64,000 bases of DNA from Cyanophora paradoxa CCMP329 (GCA_004431415.1 QPMI01000568.1:52183-116182), one strand, 5' to 3'; numbered from the stretch's first letter, positions 10,768 to 47,560 are shown. Notes: generated by a model from the sequence alone, not told the origin. Translations and numbers: made by a program.

Positions 10768-10840
10768 TGGATTCTGTTTTTTACTGTATCAAAATTGTGT
10801 TTCAAGTGTAACACGTCCAATTAATCAATCGATAATCAAT

Positions 10841-11121: not shown

Positions 11122-11171
11122 ATGACGATATTCAATAATACATGTTATATTTCTTCAAAATCTCAGTGTGA

Positions 11172-13800: not shown

Positions 13801-16800
13801 CTATGCTACCATCTTCCCTGTTGCTATATAAGTCATTTGATAGTGGAAAAGTCCAATGCTTTCATTGTATTCTCTATTTGCCGAAATTGTTGCATAAATA
13901 GTAAATGTTGTTGTTGTGGAACTTGTGACACCATATACCAATACATATGAACCACCATTATACCCATCTCTTAAATTGAGAACGACTGCTGGGGCTTCTG
14001 CAAACGCTTTTGGGAATGTGACAACTTGTGGAAATCCCCAATGACCCGGACCTGTGATTGTTAAAGATTTTGAAAAACTCCCTGTCTGTATATACTGGTC
14101 TTTATTGACCCGTTGTTCTGAGACAAGTTTCGCAATCTTACCATTGTCTTTTTCATCCATCGCATAGTATGCTCTTGCGTAAGCATTGCCACGACATAAT
14201 AGTGTTTTATCGTATATGTTCGCGGAATTGTGGAAGAACCACTGTTCGTAGAATAAAGGAGAGTCTGGTTGGTAAATTTGACCGGATCCCACATACATGG
14301 TATTATTTGCTGTGATCGTATTTGCTACAAATGGGTCTAAGGTTGGGAAATCTGTGATTTCCGATTTCGTGTGAGTATGGGCGAAATCTGTTATATTTGC
14401 CTTTGTGTGAGTATGTGCAAAATCGGTGATATCTGATTTAGTGTGAGAGTGAGGTCCGACAGTTGTGGAAGCTGTTGGTTTCCCGTAAATGTTATCCCAA
14501 TGCAAGAAGCCACTGTGTGATGATACAGCAGGATTTTTACTCCAACCAACAAGACCCACAAGGTAAATCCTTCCAATTCGCCCTTGAACACCAACTTTAC
14601 TCAGCCCTTCACAATTTACCCCGACATATTGCCTATACTCTACACTTGGGTCACTACCAGGAGAATAAGCATTTACTCTCGAAAGTGTATAAGAATTTGT
14701 TGATGGATAAACTCCCACAACATCAAAGTATCTACTATTGTATTGACACACATAGAAGATATAGCATGTCTTCATTCCCGCGGGGACAGTCCATAACATC
14801 TTGTAGCCACTACAATCTTCATCACCAGAAGCCCATGTGTTTGCTCCTGAGTAAGGAGATATGAATGTAAAAAATCTCCAATCACCTGTGCGGTCTGTGG
14901 AAATACCACTTGTAGCATCGAAATTTGTGGGTGCTGTATATGTTGGTTTATTAATTAAATCATCATAATTTCCGCTTGTCGCAACTGCTGCTAAGGTGGG
15001 TCTATCCGTAATATGGCTCCATAAATGTAGATGTGGTGAAGGTGTGAATGTTACAGGCTTATCTGTTATACTATTCCATGTGTGTGTGTGGTCAAAATCT
15101 GAAATCTCATCTTTTGTGTGAACGTGTGCAAAATCGGGTATCTCTAATCGGGAATGTGTGTGGGCAAAATCTGTTATTTGTGATTTTGTGTGAGTGTGTG
15201 TGGGTATCTCCAAATTGCTAAGTGTTAATCTGTCTTTGCCGATAATATTCAGAATTTCCCGAGTTAAGATTGGTTGAGTATTGGGGAATCCATACATTTG
15301 TTGGATGTAATACCTTACTTGTTGTTTTTCTGCTGTGGTTAATGCTCTGTTGAATACAATAATCTCAGCAATGCTTCCCGCAAATATTGTTCCAAATCCA
15401 AAATCGTTTATAGTGGAATCAGGTAAATAATTATTAATTCCTGTGAGAGTTCCCACATCGACACCATTTAGCCCCACTGTGTAGCTATCAGAAGTTATTG
15501 TTTGGTCTGAGTAATACCATTTATTTAGCAAAGAGGGAACTGTGACAGCAATTGGAGGTTGTGTTACACCATTTATAGCGAAAGTAGTTGTCCCTAATCT
15601 TGTTGAATTATTTGCTCCATAGTAGGCTAATCGCGTTGGTGATGTTGTTTTTAGCACACGCAAATGTGTATGAGAAGCACCTGTTTGTGTTAAATGATAT
15701 CTTCCAATATAGAAGAATGTCAAACCTTGTGACCAATCAATCGTTCTTGTCATCGTTGAGTTTGCTGAGTAGTTCCCTGAATCGCTTGTTAAAGTCATCT
15801 GATTATTTATAGCGATATTGGATGAGTAGTAGGGACTTCCTGTGGAACTGACAGTTATAGATGGAACGATTGAGGAGACCCTATTGTAAAGAATTGTTGA
15901 TGCTGCATTTTGACCATGAACCCCTGATGCTTTCCATGCAAAAATACAATTGGGAATATTAGAAGCTGGATCAAAATTGGAAGTGATTCGATAAAAATTT
16001 TCACTATAAGATTCTAAATAGCTTCCGGTTCCCATTTGAATTTTCCCTCCAACTGTTAGGTTGCTTGTCACAACCAAGTTGCTGGTGATGGTTCCACCTG
16101 TGAGAGGAAGATAATTAGATAATGCTACATTAAGTTCAGGTTCAGTCACATATACATCAAGTTCTGATTTTGTCACATAATCTTCAAGAACTGCTGCAAG
16201 TTCTGTATCGTCTACATAATTTTTGCTTTCAAGGTAATCATCTGTGACAACACCTGAAAGGGTCTCATTGTGTAAATTTTTTGCCGCCATTCTCTGATTG
16301 ACTTCTAAGGCGCCACCTGCTAATGTTTTGATCCACGCCATCTCACATTTCCCGAAATCATCTTTTGGTTGTCCCACAAGTGGTGCGTAATTGAATTTCG
16401 AGCGACTAAATATTATTTTCGGTCTTGATCCATCGGTTGCGCTTACATCTGTAACGTTTACTTGTAAGATGGCGTCTTTATCATCATAACTCACTGGATC
16501 TAATGGAAGTGGAGGTAAACCTGCTGTTAATGGGATATCTTCATTATAATAACTTGTCAAAAACAGACCTGGTTTAGTATCTATAACTCCCACCCCACCT
16601 GCTGAAACCATTTGAGATCTTGAAGGTTGTTTAATGTATAATTCGCCATCCATTGTGGTGCCTGCGTCTATTCCTTTTCGGTGCAAATAGTATTCACTTA
16701 ATTGTAATCTTTCAGGAATGGTGTCACTCTGATAGAAACTAACCCCATAAAATCCGTCACCATTTACTAAATCACCTGTTGATGCAAAACGTGGTTTTTC

Positions 16801-19800
16801 ATCTATTTCACTCCATGGGTGTTTGTGGTTAGAGTTTGTGATTTCGGAATAATCATGAGTGTGTGAATCTGGTGGAAAGGTTAACGGAGGATTTGTGATA
16901 TGCTCCCATAAATGAGTATGGGCGAAATCTGTGATCTGATCTTTGGTGTGAGTATGGGCAAAATCTGTGATCTGATCTTTGGTGTGAGTATGGGCAAAAT
17001 CTGTAATTTGATCTTTTGTGTGTGTGTGGGCGAAATCTGTGATCTGATCTTTGGTGTGAGTATGGGCGAAATCTGTGATCTGATCTTTGGTGTGAGTATG
17101 GGCAAAATCTGTGATCTGATCTTTGGTGTGAGTATGGGCAAAATCTGTAATTTGATCTTTTGTGTGTGTGTGGGCGAAATCTGTTATTTGATCTTTTGTG
17201 TGAGTATGGGCGAAATCTGTGATCTGATCTTTGGTGTGAGTATGGGCAAAATCTGTGATCTGATCTTTGGTGTGAGTATGGGCAAAATCTGTAATTTGAT
17301 CTTTTGTGTGTGTGTGGGCGAAATCTGTTATTTGATCTTTTGTGTGAGTATGGGCGAAATCTGTGATCTGATCTTTGGTGTGAGTATGGGCAAAATCTGT
17401 GATCTGATCTTTGGTGTGAGTATGGGCAAAATCTGTGATCTGATCTTTGGTGTGTGTGTGGTTTTGTATCCAACCTTGAACCACATTCGATGTTGGATGA
17501 TGAGGAAGATTAGCATTACTTGTTACAGTGAGATAATCGATCACTGTATCGGGTGATGTGATCTTTAAACCTCTGTAAATGGTCAGAGGTTGAGTATTGG
17601 GGAATCCATACATTTGTTGGATGTAATACCTTACTTGTTGTTTTTCTGCTGTGGTTAATGCTCTGTTGAATACAATAATCTCAGCAATGCTTCCCGCAAA
17701 TATTGTTCCAAATCCAAAATCGTTTATAGTGGAATCAGGTAAATAATTATTAATTCCTGTGAGAGTTCCCACATCGACACCATTTAGCCCCACTGTGTAG
17801 CTTGTAGAAGTTATTGTTTGGTCTGAGTAATACCATTTATTTACCAAAGAGGGAACTGTGACAGCAATTGGAGGTTGTGTTACACCATTTATAGCGAAAG
17901 TAGTTGTCCCTAATCTTGTTGAATTATTTGCTCCATAGTAGGCTAATCGCGTTGGTGATGTTGTTTTTAGCACACGCAAATGTGTATGAGAAGCACCTGT
18001 TTGTGTTAAATGATATCTTCCAATATAGAAGAATGTCAAACCTTGTGACCAATCAATCGTTCTTGTCATCGTTGAGTTTGCTGAGTAGTTCCCTGAATCG
18101 CTTGTTAAAGTCATCTGATTATTTATAGCAATATTGGATGAGTAGTAGGGACTTCCTGTGGAACTGACAGTTATAGATGGAACGATTGAGGAGACCCTAT
18201 TGTAAAGAATTGTTGATGCTGCATTTTGACCGTGAACCCCTGATGCCTTCCAAGCAAAAATACAATTGGGAATGTTAGAAGCGGGATCATTACTGGCTGT
18301 AATAGAATACCATTCTCTGTAAAGTTGGTTCATGGTATTAAAGTTGCCTGAGCCAATCGTTAGAATTCCATTCACTTTTAGGTTGCTGGTCTCTATGTTG
18401 CTACTGTAAATATTACTATTTACTGTAAGGTTTCCTGTGATTGTCCCACCAACAAGCGGGAGATATTTTGATAATTCCGCGGCAAGTTCAGGTTTTGTTA
18501 CATAATTTCCAAGCATCGCAAGAGTTACGAAATTAACGAGAATTACAGCCGTTAGGTAATCTTCCGTTACGATTCTTGAAATATCTTCATTGTGTATGTT
18601 TTTGGCGCTTGCTCTTTGATTGATTTCTAATAAACCTTCACCAACGCCACCGTTATATTTCGTTTTTATCCATGCTATCTCACATCTTTTGTAATCATCG
18701 CGATCTCCTATAAAAGTATTTGGTAAAAGACGCTGCCGACTAAATACTAATTTGGGTCTCGATTGGTCAAAGTCGCTAACATCTGTTACATTAATTTGTA
18801 TTGCTGCGTCTTTGTTATCGCAACTATTTGGATCTAATGGAAGTGACGGTAGCGGAGGTAATACATTTGTCATCTCGATATCCTCAGGATAGTAGCTTGT
18901 TAAATAAATTCCGGGTTTCGTCTCATACAAACCAAAATTACCACTAATTGGTAAAATGCCTTCTCTTCTGGGTGGTCTAATGTATAATTCAGCTTCCATT
19001 CCTGTGCCTGCTTCTATTCCCATGCGATTAAGGTAGTGGTCATTTAATTGTAATCTTTCTTCGATTTCTATGTTTCGGTAGAGACTTACGCCATGTTGAA
19101 AATCTGTTAATACATTTCCTGCGGATGCGAAAGTAGGTTGCTGGTCGATTTCGTCCCAATTATGCCTATGGTCTTCTGGCGGAAAGTCTGGTGGTATTCC
19201 ATCAATTTCGTCCCAATGGTGGCGATGCTCTGTCGGTGGAAATCTTTCCGGTTTGTTTAAAATGTCTTCCCATTCGTGATCGTGGGGATCTGGTGGGAAT
19301 GTTTCAGGTTTGTTAATAATATCCCTCCAATCTACTGTAAAATCGAAAAATCCCGGTTGTAATCCGTCTGGTAATAACTCTTCATCTGGTATATGTGGTT
19401 GTTCGTAATCTATGTTAGGTGGATTTAATCCATCTGGTAAAAGTTGTTCATCGAAAGGTTCGTAACGATCATATAACATATGGTTAGGATCAAATCCATC
19501 CGGCAATTCTTCCACGTCTTCACATTCTTTATGTTCGAGAGGGATTACATTAATATCTGGTGCTAAGAGTTCCTCAGCGGGCGGTTTGTAATCTTTAAAA
19601 ACTGGTTTATTATAAACTTTTTCCCAACTAACTAAATGTTGACCAAACGCAACCGTTTCATCAGCTGTGTATTCTCTTCCGGGTTGTTTTTTGGTGTAAG
19701 ATCTGGTGGATCCCATGGTAACGGAAATGGAACTGGAACAGGTCCGTAATGTTCAAATATTTCTCTTATCGTTTTCTCACTAACAAGTTTCTCGCCATTT

Positions 19801-20571: not shown

Positions 20572-22130
20572 ATGCCTCAGAAGATTGTTTTATCGTTGTC
20601 TGGTGGAGGTGCGCGTGGTATTATCATAACAAGGTTACTAACAGAAATTGAAAATAGAACTCGAAGACGTATAATAAATCTTGTCGATCTTGTAAGCGGA
20701 ACATCCACAGGTGGTATAATTGCGATTGGGTTAAATATCAGACATCCTGAGATGCCCAATGAACCAAAACTAACAGCTAACGATTTGCATAATATTTATC
20801 TTACACAGTTACCGTTAATTTTTGCGAATCCGCGAAATATCATTGAAAATGCCCTTTTCAATACAAAATACGATGCTACACCACTGGAAAGTGCGATTTA
20901 TTCAGTAACTGGTGAATCACTCATAAGAGATTCTCTAAAAGACATTGTGATTACATCTTTTGATACTCAATATATGAAACCAATATTTATAACAAACGAT
21001 AACAAATACAATTTTTTGCCGAATAAAATAGTAGCGCGTGCTACATCTGCTGCTCCAACATACTTTTCTCCTGTTAGCATTGTAGATTTCAATAATGGCG
21101 TAATTGCTTCTCTGATTGATGGCGCAATTTCAGGAAACAATAACCCAAGTGTATGCGGTTATAGTCATGCAAAAAAGATTTATAATGAAGATGACGAAAT
21201 TATAGTTATAAGTATATCTTGTGGTGAGGTTGATGCAAATTTAGAATCTGAATATTTCGGATATGCTTATGAGACTGTGAATAGCTGGGGTATTCTTTCA
21301 TGGATTGCTTCAACAGAAGGAAGCCCATTAATTAATATGCTAATGGCTGCAAGCGAACTATCCGCTCTTGATAAAATGGAAGAATTACTACCTCCAAATC
21401 TTGACCAAGGATATAATAGATATTTCCGTCTTTCTGTTCCGCTTCCAAATGATATAGTTCGATCACTTGATGATACATCTAAGATACCTGAAATGCTCGC
21501 ATTCACTGAAACGTATATTGCTGCAAATGACGCTATGATAAATAGACTCTGTGATTTACTTGTAACAAATTATGAGATTAATAACCCTGTCAGATCGTAT
21601 ATATCTTCCACTCTTAATAACATACCTCCCATTGACGCTAATTGGTATCTTCTGTCAGATAATGCGTTTTCTGCTTCGTCTGCGAAATTCGGAAAAGAGG
21701 CATTTAAAGCCCGCCCATCATTAACAGGATGGGAAGCGAACGCATCCGCCATAAACGGAGTATGGGAAACGCCAACTGAATATTTGCAAATTGCTTTTCC
21801 ATATACATATGAAATCGCTTCTATAATTGCTTATGGTTCAGGTATAACAACTGCGTTTATTAAAACTTTCAATGTTGCGACATCGCAAGATGGTTTAACA
21901 TGGTCCTTCATCAAATCTGATGGTGTAAATAGAATCTTTGTATGTGAAAATATAAATAATGCTAATAACTCTGGGATGTATCATATGCTACGGGTTTCCC
22001 GCTTATAATTAACGATGTATTTAATATACGTTATTCTTTGAGAATTCAATATATTCGTATTTATCCATTAGTATATATAAATGCTCCAACTATGAGAGTC
22101 GATGTGTCGGGTTCATTTATTAGAAATTAG
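20572..22130 (+). CDS. Patatin-like phospholipase with C-terminal F5/8 type C (discoidin) domain; frameshift near 21975
   Basis: GGGARG, GTSTG, SAAPTYF and DGA motifs; discoidin motifs (EYLQI, YIRIYP, MRVDV). The element C copy (50804-52345) is intact. Confidence 0.88.
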
Positions 22131-23425
22131 AGCTTTTCAGTTCCATTTATTGTAAGTTTTTTTAATTCTCTTGTTACTTTGTTTTTTTTCTTTAATCTTG
22201 CTTGTAAAAGCGGTTCTTCTGGGACATCATCCGCTTTTTCGATGCCTTCCTTACGAATCGCCGAATCAACCCGGGCTTCTTCTTTCGCTTGTTCAAGTGC
22301 ATCCACTGTGGGCGCTTCGTGATACTCAACACCTTTGATAGGTAACAGTTCGTGGAAAGCGAATCTCCCTTCGACCATTTCGCCATTTGGATTTCGCAAC
22401 CTGAACTTGAAACCCTCTCTCCCTTCGACAGTATAGACGATTCGCGACCAATTGACACCCTGTTTAGCGAATGGGTTCTTTTCTATTCTCACTCTCACAA
22501 ACATACCCTGTTTCACGCCATCTAAGTAAGCAATTGATTTCTTGAACCTCTCATCTTCTAAACCAATAATCTCTCTATAATGCTCTTCCGTTGTTTCTGC
22601 TGGTTTTCTCTTAGTTGCCGAGTGGATGGTATTGTTATAGTTATACTCTATGTCTCCCAATACATCGAAGAATCGCGCTGTGTTGTTTGCTATGCAATAG
22701 TTCGTGATCAATCGTTTGATCTGCTTGTTAAACGCTTCGATTCTACCTTGGCTTCGATGATCTGCGACATCGCTTATCTGATGGTCTATGAACTTCTTAG
22801 CAAGGTAATTCGTGAACATCGTATTTGTGAACTCGCTTCCGCTGTCACTCTGAATGCGAGCGATAGGTCGCGGAACTCTTCGTTGTAACTGCTCAAACGC
22901 CGCAAGCGCCGTAAGAGCGCTCTTATCTCTCATCGGAATGATGTAACCGGTGCGTAAAGTCGATTCCATCGCGGACATGAACGTATCGTAACCGTCGTTT
23001 TGGTTCTTGTATGCCGGGAAAAAGAGCAGATCGATTACGTAGGTATCGAGAGGTTGCCGAATCGGAATCATTGGGTCTCTCTTTCTTGAAAGGGTCGGTG
23101 CGTTTATCTGAACAACTTCCTGTTTATCATACCATTCTCTCATCTTCTTGTAGTCTTCCTCTGGTAGTTCCTTTCTCATTGCCCCGAAACCCTTGTAACC
23201 TGTGCGCGGATCGTAAAACTTCTTCGCGATCTTCGATTCTTTCGTTACAGTCTCAGTAGGCAATGCCTCCGGGATCAGTTCTTTAACCATCTCAGACTTC
23301 TTCAAGATTCGTGTGTTCTTCTCTTCGACCGGAATAGTGATCGGTAGCATGTTCCCTTGGTCTTCTTTCATGCTCTTCTTTACAATTTTAGGGACGGGTC
23401 GCAATCCTATCTGTGCTGAGGGCAT
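22127..23425 (-). CDS. Retroviral-type (rve) DDE integrase
   Basis: YVIDL, IQSDSGSEF, GRIEAFNKQIK, YNNTIHSATK. The 6-bp TSD fits this enzyme class. Confidence 0.92.
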   Translation of the reverse strand: MPSAQIGLRPVPKIVKKSMKEDQGNMLPITIPVEEKNTRILKKSEMVKELIPEALPTETVTKESKIAKKFYDPRTGYKGFGAMRKELPEEDYKKMREWYDKQEVVQINAPTLSRKRDPMIPIRQPLDTYVIDLLFFPAYKNQNDGYDTFMSAMESTLRTGYIIPMRDKSALTALAAFEQLQRRVPRPIARIQSDSGSEFTNTMFTNYLAKKFIDHQISDVADHRSQGRIEAFNKQIKRLITNYCIANNTARFFDVLGDIEYNYNNTIHSATKRKPAETTEEHYREIIGLEDERFKKSIAYLDGVKQGMFVRVRIEKNPFAKQGVNWSRIVYTVEGREGFKFRLRNPNGEMVEGRFAFHELLPIKGVEYHEAPTVDALEQAKEEARVDSAIRKEGIEKADDVPEEPLLQARLKKKNKVTRELKKLTINGTEKL

Positions 23426-23452: not shown

Positions 23453-23614
23453 ATGGACGAGCCGGTTTGGACAGAACACCCAAAACCAAACTACTTTGCG
23501 ATCGATCCAAACGACCCCGGTTTAAGGTGCATATGGTTGCTGCATCTGATCCGTGGTTTACTGCTACTTGGAGATCGAAAAAATAAAAAGAGAAGTATTG
23601 AGCAAGTATATTAA
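23453..23614 (+). CDS. Unannotated 53-aa micro-protein between integrase and pPolB
   Basis: MDEPVWTEHPKPNYFAIDPNDPGLRCIWLLHLIRGLLLLGDRKNKKRSIEQVY*. Conserved with identical length at 54237-54398. Confidence 0.75.
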   Translation: MDEPVWTEHPKPNYFAIDPNDPGLRCIWLLHLIRGLLLLGDRKNKKRSIEQVY

Positions 23615-26600
23615 AGACCAAATGGAATGCTGTGAATGCCGTCGGCTGATATCTTCCGTTTGCTATCGAGTTGGTTTAGAGCGACCCTTCTGCTCTCCAA
23701 GTCATATAAGTTGTGGTCTTGCCTTCGCTTGTTTGTTACTGATACTGTTTTTATGATGCCTTCGAACAGACATCTCTTAAAATCATCAAAATGAACCTCT
23801 TTCGAGGAAGTCCCCGACATCTTTACTCTTTCGTTGGTCTCAGTTCTGAAAGCATAGAGTTTCGATCTCAGACCCACATACTCCATGATCTTTGCATTTG
23901 GGAACTCATTTTTATATTTACCTGGAACCATGCGGTTTTTGATACTCACGAGAGGATGGGATTTATCGTAATTGCTCCTATCGAGATACTCACCTATCTC
24001 TTTCATATCTTCGTTCAGATTATTGGTTTTCAGGAAAAGACAGAACGAATCGGTATCGTGGAACAGTAGTTTAGCTGTTTCCCACTTCCTCCTTACCACA
24101 TCGTAGAAGAACCGATAATTATGCAGCTTCGCGAAATCCAAAACGAAAGCGCCAATTGCTACGGGTTTATCTAAGTTAACATGCTTCGAATACATCTCAA
24201 AGGCAACTGCGTTTTCGTTTAATACATTGGTCGCCTTGATAAGCGGACTTGCTGCGTATTTCTTACAGAGTTTCTCACTGTTAGCGATCTTGACAGTTGA
24301 GCGACCCCTGCAAGATTCCAAACATTTACCGTAAATTGCATTGTTCATGAGTTTAAAGAAGTCGCTTTCGAAATGGTTAGTAGATTCATGCCTGAGAAGA
24401 GTATTCAGACCAATGTAAGACTTCATGAATGGGGAAGTAGCGAATGAGAGAACTTTATGTATCTTTTTTAGAACGACACCCTTTTCAATGATGTAATTAA
24501 GAAGAGGTCGAGCAATCACGTATTTATTCTTGGGCGTAAATGTCGCTGTAAGTTTGGGGTCTTTGCTGATCTTTTCGCCCGTCAGATCTAATAGTTTACG
24601 TTGATAATCACCAAGCATTTCAGCGGTAATCACTTCTTTATTCACAATCAGTGGAAATCGTAATGATCTTCAAAAGTTGTGGGGTATTCAAGATCTACTT
24701 CAATAAATGCGCTTCGTCCCTCTACCTCTTTAAGTGCCTCTGTGATGTCTTCCCATCGATAATCTCCGATTGGTAGTGGTTGACTGAGAGCATAACCATA
24801 AAGATTATTTGCATCCAACAGAACTATATGATCGTTGGGGTTCTCTACCTTTGCGTATCGTGTGGGCATGGTAGCAAATCCACCGCGAATGGCTCTCTCA
24901 ACAAATTCGTATTTCTCTACATCATCGATTAGTTCAATCTTAACTTTCGTATGTTTTAGCATAGCATCCCAAGAGAGACCCGGTGCGCTAACATAATGTG
25001 CGGGATCCAATCCGTATTGAGAAAACGCCAATTTGCGAAATGCTTCAAACTTTCTCATTAAATCGCCTACATCCACAGATTGGAAATCCATAAAATGGGA
25101 AGCATCTATGAACTTCCACATGCCCCATTGAAGCGATAGGTATTGATCGAAATTCTTGCTCAGAATCTCAACACGTAGTTTATCATCTTGTTGGGCAATT
25201 TTGCGGAATATTCCGTGTCCGCATTCATCCATGTGATCGACCACGATAGCTACTTTGGTTTGCTTTGAGATTCGCCGGTGGAGGTTACAGTTTCGGCATG
25301 CCTTTCCGATGAAATCGCCGGATTGGTGGCAATGATCGCGAACCGGGAAGTTTTCGTGGGTGAATCTCTGAGAGCAAATGTAACAGTGTTTTGTTACCTT
25401 GTATTCCGCCTTCTGATCGTCTGTGAGTGGATGCATCGGAATGTTTCTAAACAGCGTCTCAACGATTTCGGGTCTAATATCTTGTAGAGTAGCAAAGAGA
25501 GAACCAAGCGGATCGGCTCCCTCGAAATGGTATGCTCTCACTTCATCTCCCATTACCACTCTCAATGAAACCGCTTTGATCTCACGTTTACTCCTCTGAG
25601 CATCAATAGCGACCGAATGATCTTCGACTTTAACGTAACAGATCACAGGGAGCCACACAGTTTTACGCAAGTGTTGCAGACCGAATTCAATTACGCTTCC
25701 CGCTTTTGGGCATTTGCCTTTGCTCTCCCTCCAATCAATGCAGCGATTCGCTTCAACATGCATGTCTAATTTCTCCTGAGTTCTGAAACGCGACAAGCAG
25801 GTTTCACAGTAGTAAATGCGACCATCACATGCTTTATCAAACGTAGTTTTCAGAAGACGACTAAAAGACATGATAGTAATGTAGTGTCCCCGATCATCTT
25901 CGGTGTTTTCGATAAGTAAAAGATTAATCTTGGTCTTTCTTCTTGGGTTACTTGATTGATGGAGAGGATAGAAACACTCTTTGGCGTTATCGGCTCCGTA
26001 AATGTTAATAGAGAGTTCGGGGTTTAGTTCTTCGAAACGATCGATTACCTCAGCATCACATGCAACGGGAAACTGAATACCATCGAAATTGAGTTCATTT
26101 AACCAACGGCGGTATTGGCTTGGTTCGTTACTCTTGTGTTTGTTAATGTCCTTTCGATGCAGGTAAGCCAAAATCGCATACTTGAAGCAATCTTGACCGT
26201 CGATATTCTTAACGTTCACCGTTGCCTTCTTGGATGCAATCCATTCGGGAGTTGCGAAATAGCATCCTCCCACAGGTGCATAAGACATGATAATGCCTCT
26301 AAGTATTTCGATCTTCTCCAAACGGTAACTATCCACTTGCGTCATTTCCTCTTGCATTTTCTGTAACGCTTTGCGAACTTCTGTGTCTATGTTGCGGGAT
26401 CGGGTAATTACGAAATAATCGCTGTAAATGAATTTGGTGATATAGATGCGCGGATTACCTACTTTGGTGAACTTGCAAACGAAAGTCAGACGGACTTTAA
26501 CGGCTCTCAGTTGCTCTAAGCGGGTTCTAATGCGTTGCGGTAGACTTGGTGCGATTCTTTCGAGGAATTCGATAGCATCCACGACAACTTCATTTCGGGC

Positions 26601-26891
26601 GCGATAGGTCAACCACGAATACGCTTGATTCATCGCTTGTCCATCTTCGATATCCGGTTCAATTGCTCCTAATCTCTGTCCTTCACCCATAAATTCCTCC
26701 ATTCGTTGCATGCGATCGTAGAGGTCATTTGCAATCTCAGTGAGTTGACCTAATCGCGGTCGTCTATCTAAGATGGCGGCTTCTCTATCGTATTCCGCTT
26801 CGGTGATCTCACCTGTAACTAAGAGAGTTCCTAACAATCCAAGTATTTCATTTTTCTTTTCTTTGATCAGTCTGTTCGTTTGGCGGGGCAT
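23611..26891 (-). CDS. Protein-primed family B DNA polymerase (vOTU-like and endonuclease-VII-like domains; degenerate exonuclease); one frameshift near 24655
   Basis: NIDGQDCFKYA...GHYITI, VRDHCHQSG...CRNCN, YGLDPAHY.SAPGLSWDAMLK, IRGG, DANNLYG, KLMNNAIYGK, HDTDS, GLRSKLY. Confidence 0.92.
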
Positions 26892-26933: not shown

Positions 26934-27092
26934 TTAAGTTCTAATGATTCTCACCGTTGTTTCCTTTGGAATATATATAGTAACATAGTTTCTCTTCCGC
27001 CTGTTATTGATACCACAATTATACTTTATGAACTTTGCAACCTCTTCCAAATCACCTTCCACAATTGATTGGTTCATTTTGACGTTATTCAT
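26934..27092 (-). CDS. Small hypothetical protein
   Basis: C-terminus VTIYIPKETTVRIIRT matches VNVYVPKGTNVRIIRT of the syntenic ORF 57728-57919. Upstream AAAAAATTGAC motif. Confidence 0.6.
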   Translation of the reverse strand: MNNVKMNQSIVEGDLEEVAKFIKYNCGINNRRKRNYVTIYIPKETTVRIIRT

Positions 27093-27151
27093 TTTCAACT
27101 GAGACACACGTTCAATTTTTAAATCACCAGTCAATTTTTTATTTTTTATTC

Positions 27152-27244
27152 GGTGTAACGGGTGTAACAGGTAAATCCCAAAGTTTTCGGATTTTCACCT
27201 CCCTAGGAGCAAACTTTGGGATTTACCTGTTACACCTGTTACAC
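27152..27244. promoter_or_regulatory. Internal copy of the TIR iteron palindrome; putative replication origin downstream of the helicase gene
   Basis: Near-identical to 11029-11121 and 37498-37590. Confidence 0.7.
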
Positions 27245-27311: not shown

Positions 27312-29649
27312 TTAGTTGGGAGCCTCTACGTCGTCGTCGTCGTCCTGAATCATAATCTTTTTTTTCAGTCCGAAGTAACCACGCTTCACCTGACCTCTTT
27401 CTCGAACAGTTTCAGACTTCACATTAAAGACTTCGCGGACTCGCTTTCCAATACTCGTGGCATCGGTTTTATCATCAACATAACGATAGCCAGCAATGAT
27501 AGATTCACTCGAAATGAAATCATTTCGGCTTCCGGTCTTCTCATAAGTGCTGCGGAGCCATTCCCCGATTTTATCGTTATCATTAAAGTATTCAAGTCCC
27601 TGATCGATGATAGACTGTGGCGGATTCATCAGCAGCTGTGCAAGATCCTGTTTCTTCCACATGTCCAAGAAGATCGACATTTGAGCCATCTTGTATTCGT
27701 CGTCATTCATGATGGACATAAGCGAAGTATCCGCTTTCTTCTCACCAGGTTGAGGGTTGGGCTTGAAGACACAAGAGAAACGATAGTAAGAGAGTCGCCG
27801 GTAAATCGCAGCATCGGGTTTACTCATCCCAGGTTCTCATTCGTCGATAAGAAGATTTGACCCATAGGAATGTAGGTAACAGGATCTTTGAACAGGGCGC
27901 GAACCTTCATCTCGTTACCACCTGTAATCTCTTTGATCTTGCTAATTTGAAGCTTGTCGCCATCTTCCGCTTCATTTGAAAAGATAATGCGACGACCCAG
28001 AATATCGGCAAGTTCAGGTGTAGCGTCTGATGCATTCTTTTTCGGTTTCGTCCAATATGACATATTGATTGTTCCGAAATACTGTCCGAATGTTTGCTTG
28101 ACCATCTCCTGAACGAGAGATTTACCATTGGCTCCAATTCCAGTCCAGAAATTGAACTTTTGAATATCTGTGCGACCACTCAGAGAGAAAGCGATCGAAC
28201 CCATCACGAAATTGCGCTCAATTTCCTCTTCGATGATGTCAGAGTAGATGGAAAGGATCTTGGCGACTTTCACAGAATCCACCTCGGGGCAATAATCATA
28301 ACCAACAGTCTTACTGATCATGTCTTCTGGGAGTCCCCTTCGGAAAGTCATAGAATTCAGATCAAACACGCCATTTGTGAATCCAATCACATTGGTAACA
28401 GTATCAAGTCTCTCGAAGAATGTCTTATCGTTCATCAGAACTGTGAGATCAGACAGAAGAGAAGTTCGGTAATTAGTCTGTTTGAGTTTCTTTGCGATAC
28501 CAAGAAGAACCTGTGATCTCTCCTCCAAAGACGCACGATTCTCTTCATCACGAAGCGCTCTCTGAGCGAATTGCACAGCACGTTGAAGATAAGCCGGGCA
28601 AACCCTGCAACTCAAACACAGATAGATTCGTTTCCCGGTCTCATCCATCTCCCAGATTCCGTAAGCCTCGTTGAACTTGAACCACGTCTTGTTTGAATAC
28701 TTGTAGCTGTCTCGCAGAACAAGAAAAGCAACCTGGGCAACATCATAATGTCCGCCATCAGATCCAATCGACCGATCAATTAGCTTTTCAATCTGAACAT
28801 CGGTATCAGCTTGAACGCGAACCGTCATAACTCGCTTCTTGCAATTGGTGCTATAACTCGAAACAATATACTTGTCTTTCTCGTTCCTTGAAGTATATAC
28901 CAATTGTTGGAGTCATGGCTTCCCTTGCAGCAGGGACAAATCAGACCTTTGTTCTCAGCAGTGAAACTGTAACCCTTCTCGGTCTCATTAATGATTGTGG
29001 GTAAGATGAAACCAAATTCTTCAAGTTTCCGGAGAATGTGTTTCTGCAAATCCTCTTCAATGCTCCTATCAATAGAAGAGTGTCCGCCTTTCGGAAAAAG
29101 GTAGTTGTCAATCATCCACTTTTGGAGTTCAGCACTCGGTTCGATCAACTCACAGCCTTCCGCCCATGGTTCTCTGATCCAAGTTTTACCGGGGCTTGGG
29201 GAAACGTTGATCAACCCAGCAGTTCCAGTGGACGCAATTGTCTTACAGTCGATCTTAGGATAACCTTTGAAAGCACCCGCTTTATCCCAGATCTTCACAG
29301 CATCGAAGTCAGAAGGACGAGAGAAGTAAACATGATATCCTTTTTTGGTTTTAGCAAGAGGATTGACACCACCGAAATCATCGGGGAATTGCTCCTCGAA
29401 TTTGGTGAAATCCTCCTCTTGGTCGAAGTCGATAACCACGATATTGCGAGCGAGAATGCCCCAAGCAACATACTTACCGGATTTCAGGGCTTCATCGAAT
29501 TTATCCCAAGTCCACGATCCGTCTTTATGGGCGAAAAGGGGTTTTTTGGTATCGGGATCAACGGGTATTACGATATTCTCAGACAGGACATCGTCTTCAC
29601 GAAGCCAATCAACAAGGCGTTTCAGGGATTTCTTGGCGGCAGCGTTCAT
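27312..29649 (-). CDS. Bifunctional primase-polymerase (PrimPol) fused to D5-like SF3 helicase with C-terminal winged helix; two frameshifts (near 28890 and 27830)
   Basis: WGILARNIVVIDFD...KTKKGYHVYF; CPCC...H; IGFTNGVFDL; WTGIGANGKS; FSNEAE; IKEITGG; C-terminal RGYFGLK. Confidence 0.88.
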
Positions 29650-29855: not shown

Positions 29856-30092
29856 TTAATACTTTCGTGGACGTCCCCGCGACTTGTTTTCAATTCCCTC
29901 CCGCTCCTTACGACGATAATATGAAGCGAGCGATTGCGCCTTCTTATACTCCCGATAAACCGGGTCTTCGTTGTAGAGCGTTCGCTTCCTGAGAGCATCT
30001 CTCATCTTGTAATTGGCGCGGGTCTCCTCTTCTTCTTCGCCGAATTCGATAACACTAATCATGTCTTCGGTTATATGAATTACAGTCGCCAT
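29856..30092 (-). CDS. Small basic protein with C-terminal AT-hook (RGRPRK)
   Basis: Ends SRGRPRKY. Syntenic ORF 60825-61052 ends VGRPRKY. Start placed at MATV (30092). Confidence 0.65.
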   Translation of the reverse strand: MATVIHITEDMISVIEFGEEEEETRANYKMRDALRKRTLYNEDPVYREYKKAQSLASYYRRKEREGIENKSRGRPRKY

Positions 30093-30300
30093 GTTCCCTT
30101 TTATATATAGTTGAGAAAATCTTTTACCACTCTGTATTATGCCTGATGTCTTTAAGTATTTTATGGTGTCATTTTTTGATGACCAAAGCCAGTTGGTGTC
30201 TACGTTCCTCAATTGCAGATTTAACAGCGTAAATCTTTCGTTTCGATAGTATGATGGAGTAGATCTCTTCGTGTGACATTTGATACTTTTACCGGATATT

Positions 30301-30567
30301 TTAATTTCCGTAATGGTCAAATGCCCGTCTTCGTAAGTCATCGCTATTATCTACTGAAAAACGGTGACCCGGTTCCGGTGTAGTCGATCGAGAGTGATTC
30401 CCAGCGGATCCGGAAGCATTTGATCCCCTTCGAGATCGTCTACCTTCTGTTTCATTATCTTCGTTGTCTGAGAAACCAACTTCTACCGTTGTATCACAGC
30501 ACCCACTGTGACAATTGCTTACCACATGGATATTAAACATCTCTATGATCTTTTGCAAGAATTCCAT
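30301..30567 (-). CDS. Small hypothetical protein (SNCHSGCC motif)
   Basis: N-terminus MEFLQKIIEMFNIHVVSNCHSGCCDT conserved in 61254-61487. Confidence 0.65.
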   Translation of the reverse strand: MEFLQKIIEMFNIHVVSNCHSGCCDTTVEVGFSDNEDNETEGRRSRRGSNASGSAGNHSRSTTPEPGHRFSVDNSDDLRRRAFDHYGN

Positions 30568-31350: not shown

Positions 31351-32133
31351 TTACAATCCCCTCTTATATCGCATCAACTTATTCGTGTGAACAGCGCTTT
31401 TAATCTCTTTCGGCGCTTCCTCCTTCTCAGGCGGTTTTAATTCATCTTCTTTCTTTTTTGGTTTGCGATGGAACCGAGGAAACTTAAAGTCTTTAACGAG
31501 TTCCGCTTTATCAACATAGTATTCCACCGAATAATTCGCAGAACTCCAAATGAGAAACTGATAGGAGTGAACGTATTCCTCAAACATCTTATAGAAAGCG
31601 TCTTTATCCCGCATGATATTGTATTCTTCTTCAATGGCTTCCAGTTCTTTGCGATTGGCGGCACTTAGGAACATTGCATAATCTGAATTGACGCGAATGG
31701 TTGAAGAAACCTTACGCAGTTTCTGAGTTATGCAGAAAATTGTAATCGCCGAGTGGCGGCCGCGCGAATACAGAGATCCAATAATTTTATCACGGGTAAG
31801 GTCTACAATCTCATTGTCTATAAGATCATCGAGAACAACACATAATTGATTAACGGGTTCTCCTTTCTCAATTTTCTCTTGTCTTTCATCGAGAAGTTTA
31901 GCGATGTAAGGCGCATCCCATTTACCGAGCTGTAATGTTGCGACATCATCCCAAAAATGATTGAATGATGTCCCACTTATAACAAGAACAACATCTAACT
32001 TTTTCGCATCGTGAAGTTGTTTTAGCCAATACTTCACCGCTTCTGACTTGCCCGTCGCGCTTTTTCCGATTGCTAATACGCGAAAAGGGGGTTTAATCAT
32101 CTCAGCAGCATTAAATTCGGGAACGTCAGACAT
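31351..32133 (-). CDS. A32-like genome packaging ATPase
   Basis: Walker A GKSATGKS, Walker B VVLDD, RGRH and ITQ motifs. Start placed at MSDV, by comparison with element C. Confidence 0.92.
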   Translation of the reverse strand: MSDVPEFNAAEMIKPPFRVLAIGKSATGKSEAVKYWLKQLHDAKKLDVVLVISGTSFNHFWDDVATLQLGKWDAPYIAKLLDERQEKIEKGEPVNQLCVVLDDLIDNEIVDLTRDKIIGSLYSRGRHSAITIFCITQKLRKVSSTIRVNSDYAMFLSAANRKELEAIEEEYNIMRDKDAFYKMFEEYVHSYQFLIWSSANYSVEYYVDKAELVKDFKFPRFHRKPKKKEDELKPPEKEEAPKEIKSAVHTNKLMRYKRGL

Positions 32134-32200
32134 GGCGTAGTAGATTCTTCTTAATAAAGATAGATAAAAATAACGAAATCTTACTGATAATGGTTTAGAG

Positions 32201-33151
32201 TTAGAGAGAGATAAGGAATTGCTTAATGCACCGCTCAATATCGGTTTCTGTGTATGGGACTCTTAGAAGTTTGATGTTGTTGGCTTCACAATAGCGAGTT
32301 TTGATTTGGTCACGAATTTTAAGTTGCTCAAATGCTTCTTCTCCACCAAACACGTCAACAGGGCGAAAATGTTGCTGTCCGTCATATTCGATTGCAATTT
32401 TAAGCGCAGGTATATAGAAATCAAACGGGAGAGCCTTTGTTTTGCGGCAATCTTCGAATGTATACTGTCGCTTATAGTCAAATCCGATTTCATCCAACAC
32501 CTTTTCAATCGCGAGTTCACCTTTTGAGTTCTTGCAGCGGGGGCAACCTGTTTTTGAAAGGTGATTGCCCGGCGTTTGATCAAATTCCTGAAAGCATTTC
32601 AGACAGATTATGGTTACCTTTGTCTTTTTGTTGACATACTTCACTTTTGAATAATCGTAGCGGTCACCATGCAGTTCTTTGGCTTTTTCGATGAAAACTT
32701 CGGTGTTATCACGGCGGTGGTGTCCATTCTGATTAAGAAAGCAGGTTTTACAACCTTGTCCCCTCAAATGTGCATAACCTGCCTGTTCAAAAGTTTTGTT
32801 ACAAGTGTTGCACTTAATCGTAATTTTGGTTCTTGCATTGACATAATTAACGTGGGAATAATCATAGTTATTTCCGTGTATCTCTTTGGCTTGCTCTATG
32901 AAAAGATCTTGTGGTTTCTTTCGCTCATCATGCAGTTTCTTGTTTCTACAAGAAGGACAACCACCGTTATTTACTCTTTTAGCCATGCAAAGATGACTTC
33001 CAGCGTTTGTATCGAAATATTCATTACATGTCTTACAGAAAAGCGTTATTTTTGCATTATAAGATGTATAAAGCGCTCTATCGTATCCAAACTTATCACC
33101 ATGGGCGGTTCGGCTCTTGTCAATGAACTGTTCAATAGTAAGGGGTTTCAT
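32201..33151 (-). CDS. Zinc-ribbon-repeat protein with C-terminal Vsr/DUF559-like PD-(D/E)xK endonuclease (giant-virus-type homing-like nuclease)
   Basis: Three FIxKAxxxHGxxYDYS-CxxC-H-CxxC repeats, then SKGE...LPFDFY...IEYDGQQH...D..K..YC. Confidence 0.85.
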   Translation of the reverse strand: MKPLTIEQFIDKSRTAHGDKFGYDRALYTSYNAKITLFCKTCNEYFDTNAGSHLCMAKRVNNGGCPSCRNKKLHDERKKPQDLFIEQAKEIHGNNYDYSHVNYVNARTKITIKCNTCNKTFEQAGYAHLRGQGCKTCFLNQNGHHRRDNTEVFIEKAKELHGDRYDYSKVKYVNKKTKVTIICLKCFQEFDQTPGNHLSKTGCPRCKNSKGELAIEKVLDEIGFDYKRQYTFEDCRKTKALPFDFYIPALKIAIEYDGQQHFRPVDVFGGEEAFEQLKIRDQIKTRYCEANNIKLLRVPYTETDIERCIKQFLISL

Positions 33152-33249
33152 TGTTATTTAACAGTATACACCTTCTCTTTAAGTAGAAATCGATGATTAA
33201 AAAGGAATCATTTTTTGCAGATTTACGTAATAAAAACATACTTTTATGA

Positions 33250-34650
33250 TCATAGATTGATTCGCCTGACGCCATCGCGGTCAATTATGAGGAACGAATG
33301 CATGAGAGCGCGAACGTTAACAGTAATTGTGCGATCAGCAGGAAGATATAGAGTGAGGAATGATGAAGACGAGTTCGTAAGGTCAACATATCCAGATTGG
33401 GCAATGTTGCGAATCGCCTTCTCACCATCAACACAGAATGGGAATCCAGTAAGGACGTAACGGTTTGCTTCCTTGTCCATATTCGAGCATTTGAAGGCAT
33501 CGGCGATGAGTTCCGCACCTTTGAGTAGCGGGATCGGCTCCGTCGAATAAAGACGCTGTCCGTTGATCTCACAAGTCATCGTGATATCCTTCGCATTCGC
33601 AAGCGTTTTAAGGACGCTGTGAGAACCATTCGAGGTATCGACACCATCAGCATCACGAACAGAGACAAGAAGAGCATAAACCAGACCAGAGATTTGGCTA
33701 AGATTGATTCGGTTGGGTTGAGTGTTACCTTTCGCAGCAACACCAATAGCATCGACGAAACCGATATCGAGAGCAGGAATAGCCATCCCCGTGGTCTTAA
33801 CCTTCTCAATAACAGTTGCAAACAGTTCATCTGAAACGTTGATAGCATGCATGTAGAGACGAGGAGACTTAATGGAGATGTAATGGGTCATTGGTGGAAC
33901 AGTTCCAGCAACTTCGAACCCAGTAATACCGCCAGTGGTGATGTTTTGACCAACATTAGCAAGTGTAACGCTCGTAGCATTTCCAAGTCCATCATCTGAT
34001 GATTTATCCGCAGCAGTGGATCCAACAACCGGAAGAGAGCGACCACCATAAGAAGTTTCAAGGTAACCCTTGTTAGTTTCCTTAAACCACACAGTGATAA
34101 CGGCTTCGCCCGAGAGAGCGCCAAGTGGTAGGTAGTGGTTCAACCACGGCACCGGGATTTCAACAAAGAAAGCACCACCTTTACGGTTGGTTCCGTGAGC
34201 GGGAATACCATGAAGCATTCCCATTGAACGCTTCTTTTTCGCCAGTTGATCCTCGCTGTAATAAACCAGTGGGAAAATCGCAAGAAAATCGCTTGGGACG
34301 TGGTAGGTGTAAGAACCATACGAGAATTCAAGACGCTCTACAAGCGCACCAACGGGACGGGTGTAACCATTTCGCACAAGGTCGTCATCACCAGTAAAAG
34401 CGGTTAGTTCGGGAAGATCAAAAGCGAGTTCGATTTTACCAACAAAGTTGTAGCGGGGAAGTTTGAAAGAAACGCGTTGACCAACGTTGTTGTCATAGGT
34501 TGTCGAGGGACTAACGGTTACCAGAACGGGTTTCGTCTTCGATTCGAGACCAAGCATAAGCGAGTTATCGAGGAAGAACGCTTTGGCTTCCTCGGGCGTT
34601 GTTAGCGCCTCTTTCAGAGAAAGACGTTGAAGGGTCGAGGTAACATCCAT
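33250..34650 (-). CDS. Major capsid protein (double jelly-roll, NCLDV-like N-terminal motifs)
   Basis: 466 aa, beta-rich, next to the ATPase and minor capsid genes. GQRVSFKLPR...IELAFDLPEL...GALVERLEFSYG...VEIPVPW...LPLGAL pattern. Confidence 0.8.
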   Translation of the reverse strand: MDVTSTLQRLSLKEALTTPEEAKAFFLDNSLMLGLESKTKPVLVTVSPSTTYDNNVGQRVSFKLPRYNFVGKIELAFDLPELTAFTGDDDLVRNGYTRPVGALVERLEFSYGSYTYHVPSDFLAIFPLVYYSEDQLAKKKRSMGMLHGIPAHGTNRKGGAFFVEIPVPWLNHYLPLGALSGEAVITVWFKETNKGYLETSYGGRSLPVVGSTAADKSSDDGLGNATSVTLANVGQNITTGGITGFEVAGTVPPMTHYISIKSPRLYMHAINVSDELFATVIEKVKTTGMAIPALDIGFVDAIGVAAKGNTQPNRINLSQISGLVYALLVSVRDADGVDTSNGSHSVLKTLANAKDITMTCEINGQRLYSTEPIPLLKGAELIADAFKCSNMDKEANRYVLTGFPFCVDGEKAIRNIAQSGYVDLTNSSSSFLTLYLPADRTITVNVRALMHSFLIIDRDGVRRINL

Positions 34651-37340: not shown

Positions 37341-38684
37341 AAAGTAAGACCTCCGTAATATCTAAATTGATAGATGAGAGAATAACAGAGATCTTTTCAG
37401 GGTTGGAGAAAGCGGAGAAGCAGATAGCAGCGCGATTTCCGAGTTAATCACACTGAGATTTTGAAGAAATATAACATGTATTATTGAATATCGTCATGTG
37501 TAACAGGTGTAACAGGTAAATCCCAAACTTCGCTCCTAGGGAGGCCAAAAACCCAAAACTTTGGGATTTACCTGTTACACCCGTTACACCTTGGGATTCA
37601 CCTGTTACACGTTGGGATTCATCCGTTACACCTTGGGATTCAACTGTTACACGTTGGGATTCATCCGTTACACCTTGGGATTCACCCGTTACACCTTGGG
37701 ATTCATCCGTTACACCTTGGGATTCACCCGTTACACCTTGGGATTCACCTGTTACACGTTGGGATTCACCTGTTACACATTGATTATCGATTGATTAATT
37801 GGACGTGTTACACTTGAAACACAATTTTGATACAGTAAAAAACAGAATCCAATCTCATCGATTGTTTAATTGGACATAATGCAACTCTGGGGTCATTTTT
37901 GATACAGTAAAAATCGAACCGCAATCTCATCGATTGTTTAATTGGACATAATGCAACTCTGGGGTCATTTTTGATACAGTAAAAATCGAACCGCAATCTC
38001 ATCGATTGTTTAATTGGACATAATGCAGTAACCATCCCTTCCAACAAAATACGCCGCAATCTCAACGATTGTTTAATTGGACATAATGCAGTAACGAGTG
38101 AATTATTTTCAACCGATATCTCATCGATTGTTTAATTGGACATAATGCAGTAGCCATCTAATCCAACAAAATACGCCGCAATCTCATCGATTGTTTAATT
38201 GGACATAATGCAACTCTGTGTGAATTTTTGCGTTTTCCGATAGAATGGGCGGTGGACTACTTCAATCGTGATTATATCAATCGTGATTATATCATAAATT
38301 TATGTTCCTTCAATCGAGATTATATCGAATTTGCATAAAATACATATTAATCGCGTTTATATCAATCGAAAAATACGTATTTTTCATTTTAATACAAATT
38401 AATCGCGTTTATATCAATAAATCAATCGAGAAATACGTAATTTATCAAAAATTTATATAATTTTTATAAAATCATAATTTAATTGATATTATACCAATTA
38501 ATTTAATCGAATTTATTTAAATTTAATTGATTTTATTAAAATTTTTGATTTATTTTTTAAATATTTTCGATTAATTTACACATAAATAAAAACAAATTTT
38601 AATCCTGAGCGACAGAGCGAAATGAGCGCGAAGCGCGAATTGAGCGATAGAGCGAGGGATTAAAATTTGTTTTTATTTATGTGT
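37341..38684 (-). repeat. Right TIR of element B (1,344 bp), including the last 35 codons of the SAM decarboxylase gene
   Basis: Reverse complement of 9935-11278. Confidence 0.95.
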
Positions 38685-38705
38685 GACATTGAAAGCTCAG
38701 CGCAC

Positions 38706-42015: not shown

Positions 42016-42110
42016 ACACATATTGAAAAACGAATTTAAATCCCTCGTTCATCTCGATCGCTTCGCGATCTCGATTCACTCTGGATTTAAATTCGTTTTT
42101 CAATATGTGT
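42016..42110. repeat. Terminal hairpin of element C: perfect 28-bp arms, 39-nt loop
   Basis: ACACATATTGAAAAACGAATTTAAATCC (42016-42043) and its exact reverse complement (42083-42110). Confidence 0.95.
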
Positions 42111-43460: not shown

Positions 43461-43520
43461 ACCCGATTATCTGACCATTTTCAGTAAGACCATCTGAAAT
43501 TCTGAATTTCTCAGTGTCAA

Positions 43521-47540: not shown

Positions 47541-47560
47541 CTTTAAATTGCTCTTTATAA

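Follow-up and report, generated by a model that had tools for sequence, protein, structure and literature searches.

Introduction

How do Polinton-like viruses (PLVs) and virophages start DNA replication? The question is largely open, and one published abstract calls most PLV replication strategies unknown. The locus described here offers a defined site of 93 bp, a domain of 75 residues and, within one genome, a natural pair of elements in which one base and one residue are swapped. It lies in a 64 kb stretch of Cyanophora paradoxa CCMP329 DNA (QPMI01000568.1:52183-116182), analysed as a whole and called the window below; positions are counted from the window start. The site is a palindrome of short tandem repeats (iterons) that a first-pass annotation had proposed as a replication origin loaded by the element's own helicase.

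Related repeats have been touched upon in three sources that were available in part. Inverted repeats of PLVs were proposed as an origin for the primase-helicase ('end module') with no site named (PMC11296320), terminal palindromes beside target-site duplications (TSDs) were described in Halocafeteria virophages and one PLV subtype (bioRxiv 10.64898/2026.07.28.741278), and repeats bracketing replicase modules were noted (bioRxiv 10.64898/2026.10.13.758929). The available portions of these three sources name no iteron, period, position behind the helicase or recognition residue, and those of PMC12220804, PMC10301787 and PMC4722103 (Dishui Lake virophage) contain nothing on such sites. We found no description of iterons in PLVs or virophages in the open-access papers searched.

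Two related elements in a GC-rich host

The host is GC-rich and the integrated elements are AT-richer, visible as a GC drop along the window. Element B is a complete PLV with a 6-bp TSD (9929-9934 and 38685-38690) and TIRs of 1344 nt that are 100% complementary. Element C, the right end of which lies beyond the window, is 68-79% identical to B over aligned blocks.

9935-38684, no strand: element B, complete PLV, 28,750 bp (TIRs, flanks, GC drop)
9935-11278, plus strand: left TIR of B (TIR comparison)
37341-38684, minus strand: right TIR of B (TIR comparison)
9935-10041, no strand: left terminal hairpin of B, 28-bp stem; mirror copy at 38578-38684
22127-23425, minus strand: rve integrase of B (Pfam E=2.7e-4, below cut-off)
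23611-26891, minus strand: Polinton-type family B DNA polymerase (polB) of B, in two frames in this copy (Pfam DNA_pol_B_2 E=2.8e-4, below cut-off)
31351-32133, minus strand: A32-type packaging ATPase of B (Pfam E=4.3e-9)
33250-34650, minus strand: probable major capsid protein of B, 466 aa (size, position, one 57% homologue)
42016-64000, no strand: element C, running past the window edge; terminal hairpin 42016-42110

By Pfam, the gene set of B comprises an rve integrase, a Polinton-type polB, a Prim-Pol/D5_N/SF3 protein and an A32 ATPase; the A32 match is above the cut-off, and those to rve and DNA_pol_B_2 are below it. The 466-aa ORF at 33250-34650 had no match in Pfam or PHROG. Among 7992 scored candidates its sole homologue, with 57% identity, comes from EukProt and is labelled as Cyanophora paradoxa, which suggests a glaucophyte host; size, position and this homologue make the ORF probably the major capsid protein. 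With TIRs, a TSD, rve integrase, polB, A32 ATPase and a capsid-like protein whose homologue occurs only in a eukaryote protein set, B is not a bacterial phage satellite. The viral and metagenome contigs searched yielded no close relatives, whether by the capsid-like ORF or by the helicase alone.

B and C each terminate in a perfect hairpin, a 28-bp stem with structured loops, adjoining the TSD. Such ends could self-prime or reflect covalently closed termini, despite the Polinton-type polB. They resemble the terminal palindromes described, in the available text, for Halocafeteria virophages and one PLV subtype (bioRxiv 10.64898/2026.07.28.741278), so the protein priming taken for granted by the first-pass annotation should not be assumed.

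Short-read contigs of one organism, drawn from many studies, contain the stretch. Their summed depth (X1 and X2) was ~630-740 over the B helicase and ~1865-2150 over the C helicase, compared with ~55-100 on seemingly single-copy parts, where depth does not equal copy number. B and C both look like multi-copy subfamilies. The origin had been called private to each element; judging from these short-read contigs, it would rather be shared by a multi-copy subfamily.

Several other features were recorded. Element A (1-5950) is of another kind, with an SF1 helicase-like ORF, an rve integrase and a RING finger. A small S-adenosylmethionine decarboxylase-like gene occurs at 11172-11570 and 43521-43922 (Pfam E=1e-12 and 6e-11), that of B having its 3' end inside the TIR. 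Both elements carry a patatin-like phospholipase fused with an F5/8 type C (discoidin) domain (20572-22008 and 50804-52345, Pfam) and long fibre-like ORFs (13801-19716 in B, 46560-50122 in C). The B fibre-like ORF has 1971 aa, 36-bp repeats and a weak match to a phage tail repeat; those of C are shorter and accompanied by a C1q domain ORF. A zinc-finger/endonuclease-like ORF (32201-33151) is absent from most other copies: contigs skip 32200-33292, depth there drops to about single-copy level, and the ORF is likely a mobile insertion.

Element-specific palindromes at a conserved position

Seven iteron palindromes lie in the two elements, together with neighbouring repeats, motifs and small ORFs:

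10841-11038, plus strand: array of ten GTGTAAC units at 21-bp spacing, left TIR of B; mirror array 37581-37778
11029-11121, no strand: iteron palindrome, left TIR of B, 2+2 TGTAAC units, 9-bp period
27152-27244, no strand: internal iteron palindrome of B; predicted origin or accessory helicase-binding site
37498-37590, no strand: iteron palindrome, right TIR of B
42730-42874, no strand: iteron palindrome C1, TGTGAC units
43025-43151, no strand: iteron palindrome C2
43316-43462, no strand: iteron palindrome C3, with extra units
58063-58205, no strand: internal iteron palindrome of C (58063-58183) and an extra tandem pair (58188-58205)
26934-27093, minus strand: small ORF of ~53 aa ahead of polB, B, without family match; alternative candidate binder
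27112-27138, minus strand: two AAAATTGA motifs between palindrome and small ORF, B
29856-30341, minus strand: basic 161-aa ORF upstream of PrimPol-D5, B; alternative candidate binder
57728-57919, minus strand: small ORF of 63 aa ahead of polB, C; AAAATTGA motif at 57968-57975

Each palindrome consists of two oppositely pointed arms of tandem 9-bp units, with the core TGTAAC in B and TGTGAC in C; the units number 2+2 in B and 3+3 (+2) in C. As first described, the B palindrome occurs in both TIRs and once behind PrimPol-D5, the internal copy being 87/93 identical to either TIR copy and the two TIR copies identical to each other. The internal copy of C gave 107, 108 and 111 identities in 122 columns with its three terminal copies. 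Between the elements, only 51-58 identities in 121-126 columns were counted, near background.

The placement of the internal copy is conserved, 68 bp from the PrimPol-D5 stop in B and 90 bp in C, and the early reading that internal and terminal copies changed together was borne out: TIR and intergenic DNA holds 32 TGTAAC and no TGTGAC hexamers in B, and none and 38 in C. The three terminal copies and one internal copy reported for C were recovered, but its palindrome is not the different one it had been taken for. The iterons of B and C share TGT-R-AC and the 9-bp tandem period and form one family with a single core base switched. Besides the palindromes, C carries extra single units, and each B TIR carries ten units at a 21-bp period. 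The central AT fraction is 0.73-0.76 in C and 0.55-0.59 in B, against an element mean of 0.60; the flanks of the B palindrome reach 0.75-0.78.

We also applied a sequence-blind detector, which looks for a hexamer occurring twice at a period of 8-11 bp and the same in reverse 35-140 bp away. It returned exactly seven sites in the 64 kb window, all of them the B and C palindromes already known, and found none in the portion of element A present in the window (1-5950). In 1.30 Mb of other viral DNA it gave two matches away from D5 stops.

The AAAATTGA motif, which we take to resemble a giant-virus early promoter, stands between the palindrome and the small ORF-polB unit in both elements, 14 bp from the internal palindrome in B and ~90 bp in C, and a similar motif precedes the helicase gene. 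The motif AAAAA(T/A)TGA(C/T) is found before replication-type genes of A, B and C (upstream of 27093, 29649, 33151, 57919, 60630, 5639 and 4873); it too resembles giant-virus early promoters, and it suggests dependence on a helper giant virus.

Further observations concern the surrounding DNA. A CAGTAAG motif flanks the internal palindrome of B and the terminal and internal ones of C (27255, 27285, 42679-43482, 58216). A second TIR repeat family, with a TCCAATT...ATCGAT unit and a 63-72 bp period, lies at 10407-10807, 37822-38229 and 42448-42617; unlike the iterons it is common to B and C, and is a candidate site for a conserved factor. One low-depth contig, seen in three runs, joins 26932 and 27251, the small ORF and palindrome being skipped or replaced by unrelated sequence. 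Contigs hinting at a third subfamily at 58189-58413 have a C-like helicase end (26/224 differences), sequence before 58189 that resembles the B spacer, and an adjoining G-type (TGTGAC) arm.

The helicase ends in a predicted winged helix

27312-29649, minus strand: PrimPol-D5 of B, with Prim-Pol, D5_N, SF3 ATPase and C-terminal domain (Pfam, PHROG); three frames in this copy (28825-29649, 27824-28912, 27312-27836)
27357-27575, minus strand: predicted winged-helix domain of B (alignment to C and others); wing Thr codon 27408-27410
58273-60630, minus strand: PrimPol-D5 of C, several frames in this copy; the single open frame 58273-59625 (minus strand) holds the ATPase and C-terminal domain
58327-58557, minus strand: predicted winged-helix domain of C, model residues 357-433; wing Arg417 codon 58375-58377

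The frame breaks of PrimPol-D5 fall at different places in B and C. Short-read contigs from the same organism have one extra base at each of the two B helicase breaks and at the polB break; related copies therefore appear to keep continuous frames.

The 450-aa open frame of C was modelled from a 96-row alignment with a pLDDT of 93.9, and residues 358-433 of the model run helix, strand, strand, helix, helix, strand, strand. The whole model superimposed best on ASFV C962R and poxvirus D5/E5 (Z 26-29), and on SaPI5 PriRep5 (7OM0) with a Z of 25.5 (rmsd 3.9, 349 aligned). Residues 357-436 alone matched the RFX5 winged helix (Z 10.6, rmsd 2.1, 76 aligned), and a profile of 27 C-terminal domains matched RFX1 (1DP7) at E=1.1e-5. 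The C-terminus is thus predicted to be an RFX-type winged helix, folded for C and assigned to B by alignment to C, in agreement with the fold first supposed. The C-terminus of P4 alpha matched the C-terminal profile weakly (E=0.03). Among the structural matches listed for the C model, which are taken up by matches to the ATPase, there is no isolated P4 domain.

The C-termini had also been noted as more diverged than the rest of the helicase, and they are. Over C residues 361-446, B and C agree at 14/30, 14/30 and 14/26 positions, so that the winged-helix domain is ~50% identical, compared with 53-87% (16-26/30) for the other 30-residue blocks. The first wing strand reads E-T-V-R in B and E-R-K-R in C. 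By the profile match, the variable Thr/Arg column aligns with RFX1 R58, which the available text of PMC12311785 places among the residues hydrogen-bonding DNA.

As to the top structural matches, the portions available liken the winged helix of the ASFV C962R tail to those of P4-OBD and RFX1 and call direct DNA binding by this tail unclear (PMC10516667), and the mpox E5 winged helix had no detected role in origin binding (PMC12137749); neither ASFV C962R nor poxvirus D5/E5 comes with a shown origin role for the winged helix in these texts.

Likeness to satellite origins

One of the closest known arrangements is that of SaPI5. According to the available text of a cryo-EM study of PriRep5 on its origin (bioRxiv 10.64898/2026.10.17.759575), the origin lies behind rep, successive TGCAACC iterons, two bases apart, are bound by neighbouring C-terminal domains within a hexamer, and recognition in the major groove is through the wing (Q748, R749, R750; K777-K780). 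Defined SaPI origins have at least two iterons per side in opposite directions and an AT-rich centre, and iterons are discriminated well by PriRep5 and poorly in vitro by SaPI Rep1, as given in the part of PMC9371898 at hand. Like PriRep5, the B and C proteins join primase, SF3 helicase and predicted winged helix in one chain, with the site directly behind the gene. As in the SaPI5 origin, at least two oppositely pointing iterons stand on each side with a 9-bp tandem period, and the SaPI5 iteron TGCAAC(C) is one base from the B core TGTAAC. The B and C sites are smaller, ~93-120 bp with 2-3 units a side versus ~300 bp and 6-12 in SaPI. Unlike SaPI, B lacks an AT-rich centre and several copies occur per genome, TIRs included; B and C are moreover eukaryotic capsid-encoding elements with polB, rve integrase and hairpin ends.

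Phage P4, to which the palindrome had first been likened, shares a D5-type primase-helicase (alpha) and a second repeat block elsewhere in the genome. In the P4 record, crr lies 46 bp behind the alpha stop, the type 1 repeats have a 9-bp period and inverted partners, and ori lies elsewhere; crr is annotated as a cis-required region apart from ori. Block layout and position are shared with crr. The iteron is only loosely similar: the type 1 repeat TGTTCACC is out of register with TGTAAC/TGTGAC, and the crr arms are oriented the other way round. An iteron block next to the rep gene, the layout invoked from phage satellites, is shared with both SaPI origins and P4 crr. In SCCmec, the C-terminal domain of the Cch2 helicase binds direct repeats behind its own gene; it differs in its iteron (AAGTG), its separate PolA-type primase and its inverted repeats, which are dispensable for binding (available text of PMC7581432).

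Iteron palindromes trail primase-helicase genes in phages

Viral contigs were scanned with exact patterns for A-type (TGTAAC) and G-type (TGTGAC) palindromes, with a permuted hexamer as control. At least 120 A-type and 78 G-type stretches were found, and none with the permuted control. They made 177 distinct viral sites, 144 with flanks, 33 short A-type loci being left out; the A-type viral scan and a G-type metagenome scan each gave at least 120 matches and 80 loci with flanks. D5, VapE, DUF927, DUF3987, DnaG, AAA_25 and a PHROG primase-like family were counted as primase/helicase. Neighbours were assigned by similarity to Pfam/PHROG-annotated neighbours, and the reference families are thus drawn only from genes seen beside sites.

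A primase/helicase gene lay within 300 bp of 75 of the 144 flanked viral sites, and 70 of these sites were at its 3' end, that is, in 70 of the 90 loci holding such a gene, where 3.5 are expected by chance. The 75 adjacent genes form 30 clusters at 60% identity. In 15 further cases the gene was far away, and in 54/144 none was detected in the fetched DNA. With prokaryotic genomes and a TGCAAC scan added, 95/231 flanked sites were at the gene 3' end (47 clusters). In metagenome contigs the count was 28/80 flanked G-type sites among the matches listed; tblastn of seven window proteins against these loci gave no match, which marks them as prokaryotic-type. An inverted tandem repeat is likewise present at the D5 stop of phage T25, which was selected on protein similarity alone. 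The core AT fraction was below 0.6 in 28/47 prokaryotic sites, and a non-AT-rich core, as in B, may be normal for the class.

Two groups stood out among the loci. Behind phrog_21086 (similar to a DNA primase family) an iteron palindrome follows the gene in L049, L075, L153 and L182, and on this ground the family is probably an initiator helicase. In a phage cluster with 18 A-type sites (L005-L078), the palindrome adjoins a terminase small subunit-like gene and no primase-helicase was detected nearby.

The same layout in virophages and PLV-like loci

Two scans with helicase alignments (78 and 80 loci) covered 122 distinct D5 3' ends, ten of them classed as virophage- or PLV-like by capsid or penton-like genes. 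Five of the ten (L410, L535, L546, L555 and L544) have an inverted tandem structure at the D5 stop, that of L544 (two copies) being found by a relaxed search only; in the other five it was not found. None of the remaining 112 loci, mostly giant-virus contigs, had a six-base match near the stop. L410, the best match to C, encodes AEP-D5, GIY-YIG and A32, and its unit GGGCCGTCA lies 18 bp past the stop. L535 and L546 share the unit GGTAAGATA, in three and five copies respectively in the fetched DNA. In L535, L544 and L546, virophage contigs with several copies, the dispersed copies bear the same iteron as the one at their own D5 stop; neither this nor the predicted fold speaks against the first-pass annotation, and the comparison of internal with terminal copies covered B and C. 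From these comparisons, layout and position are kept as the iteron sequence changes by lineage, which extends to other viruses what the first-pass annotation had claimed for B and C. The related virophages L525, L536 and L538 have only a short G-rich direct repeat behind the D5 stop, without an inverted arm.

A repeat that spread by recombination between TIR and interior and has no function would account for the homogenised copies within each element. It would not account for a position conserved between B and C despite the changed sequence, for the same position in distant viruses or for the permuted control of 0, and we regard this explanation as extremely improbable.

The dispersed palindromes of L546 (166-17170) and L535 (1827-13387), three to five copies all at gene 3' ends, are reminiscent of baculovirus homologous regions.

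Position behind genes raises another reading, in which the palindrome is a terminator or a transcript 3'-end hairpin copied by gene conversion. Under the hairpin rule of giant-virus polyadenylation most gene 3' ends bear a hairpin, of unrelated sequences. As RNA the palindrome folds strongly (-50 to -72 kcal/mol), in each of B and C it follows a stop at the internal site as well as in the left TIR, and the five copies of L546 all stand at the 3' end of a gene or close to it, four in contact with the stop or within 3 bp of it. Yet a stem of at least 12 bp occurs at only 2/18 gene ends in B and 2/11 in C, all of one family; the unit also forms direct arrays without a partner; arm mismatches lie outside the hexamer and are uncompensated; and bacterial phages have the same layout. 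As the main function this is very improbable. A second role at transcript ends is possible, given that all five L546 copies are at gene 3' ends.

A wing residue that may track the iteron base

The idea of a wing column that is basic with G-type and non-basic with A-type iterons came from the first phage set, and sets fetched later were held out. In the joint alignment the residue was basic in 3/22 A-type and 6/9 G-type sequences (p=0.007, the best of 135 columns, uncorrected). The D5-only alignment gave 3/14 versus 4/8 (p=0.34) and the VapE-only alignment 0/8 versus 2/2 (p=0.02). In the held-out sets, with four gaps set aside, it was basic in 3/16 A-type (genomes) and 15/21 G-type (metagenomes) sequences (Fisher p=0.0025), and three of the six non-basic G-type residues were His.

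The A/G state changes at least eight times on a tree of 36 D5 rows of at least 400 aa. After tree correction the link was not significant: six independent pairs, too few for the test, gave a median p of 0.375, on average 3.3 in the same direction, 0.4 opposite and 2.3 tied. The covariation between iteron and helicase C-terminus that had been anticipated is thus present in the held-out sets and falls short once the tree is taken into account. L245, L247 and L264, A-type with Arg or Lys, are counter-examples. Eukaryotic cases read by eye pair Arg with G in C and in L546/L544, Lys with G in L410, Thr with T in L555 and Thr with A in B, the register of the virophage units being our own reading. 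Together, the alignments are suggestive that the wing residue tracks the A/G base of the iteron, and do not establish it.

Another protein of the element, encoded either by the small ORF of 53-63 aa or by the basic one of 161 aa, could instead bind the repeats as a regulator or terminal-repeat binder, the divergence of the helicase being incidental. Both ORFs flank the module and have diverged between B and C like the winged helix (23/58 identical for the small ORF, 26/72 for the basic one), and in the TIR array the B unit stretches to 21 bp, more than one wing would read. Against this, the site accompanies primase-helicase genes in phages, in virophages and in elements of archaea and bacteria, the base change tracks the wing residue in the held-out sets, and Pfam and PHROG give no family for either ORF. 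We consider binding by such a protein clearly improbable.

A candidate origin loaded by the element's own helicase

With a probability of roughly 70%, we propose from sequence comparison that the palindrome is where the element's own primase-helicase binds and is loaded, which would make it a replication origin of the SaPI/P4 type. By analogy with SaPI5 PriRep5, adjacent wings of one hexamer would read adjacent repeats in the major groove, one hexamer per side. Once the hexamers had opened the duplex, priming would fall to the N-terminal Prim-Pol domain, and primer extension to polB of the element or to a polymerase from a helper. From the comparisons above, the wing residue may read the fourth base, Arg or Lys with G and a small or hydrophobic residue with A, and each subfamily would thereby favour its own sites. 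Exclusivity between co-resident elements, as the first-pass annotation supposed, would then depend on a one-base difference, and SaPI Rep1 discriminated poorly in vitro. Copies in the terminal repeats would serve as additional origins or as accessory sites, like P4 ori plus crr.

Several points weigh against a helicase-loaded origin. The B core is not AT-rich, whereas SaPI origins have an AT-rich centre. The Polinton-type polB and the terminal hairpins could each start replication without the palindrome. No primase/helicase was detected at 54/144 viral sites, and 5/10 virophage/PLV-like loci lack the structure. Of the top structural matches, the mpox E5 winged helix had no detected role in origin binding, and direct DNA binding by the ASFV C962R tail is called unclear.

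Some of these points also favour a related possibility, that the wing does recognise the repeats while the internal copy serves as a crr-like operator or accessory site, through which PrimPol-D5 represses or couples the small ORF-polB unit, with replication starting at the terminal hairpins or arrays. The AAAATTGA motif lies 14 bp (B) and ~90 bp (C) from the internal copy, ahead of the small ORF and polB; the P4 site behind alpha is crr, not ori; and B combines a core that is not AT-rich with perfect terminal hairpins. In phages and virophages, though, the site trails the helicase gene regardless of the next gene, and the SaPI origin is itself the site that follows rep. An operator or accessory role in place of an origin is therefore unlikely.

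Implications for Polinton-like viruses and virophages

The mechanism of a helicase-loaded iteron origin is known from phage satellites; its occurrence in eukaryotic PLVs and virophages, in multiple copies including the TIRs and with a candidate one-residue code, appears to be novel. A wider generalisation is tentative, and we hold it as possible rather than probable. PLVs and virophages with PrimPol/AEP-D5 would replicate from a phage-satellite-type iteron origin inherited with the gene, one wing residue setting which base is recognised (Arg/Lys for G, Thr or similar for A/T). Subfamilies sharing a host genome would evade one another's helicase through a joint one-residue/one-base change and then spread the new site to the terminal repeats. 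A single code would extend from phage D5/VapE to eukaryotic satellites, and giant viruses would have lost it.

If true, self-loading iteron origins extend from phage satellites to eukaryotic satellites. There would be a reason for the joint turnover of replicase modules and terminal repeats, an explanation of how several subfamilies coexist in one host, and a simple sequence signature would be at hand for finding origins in PLV and virophage genomes.
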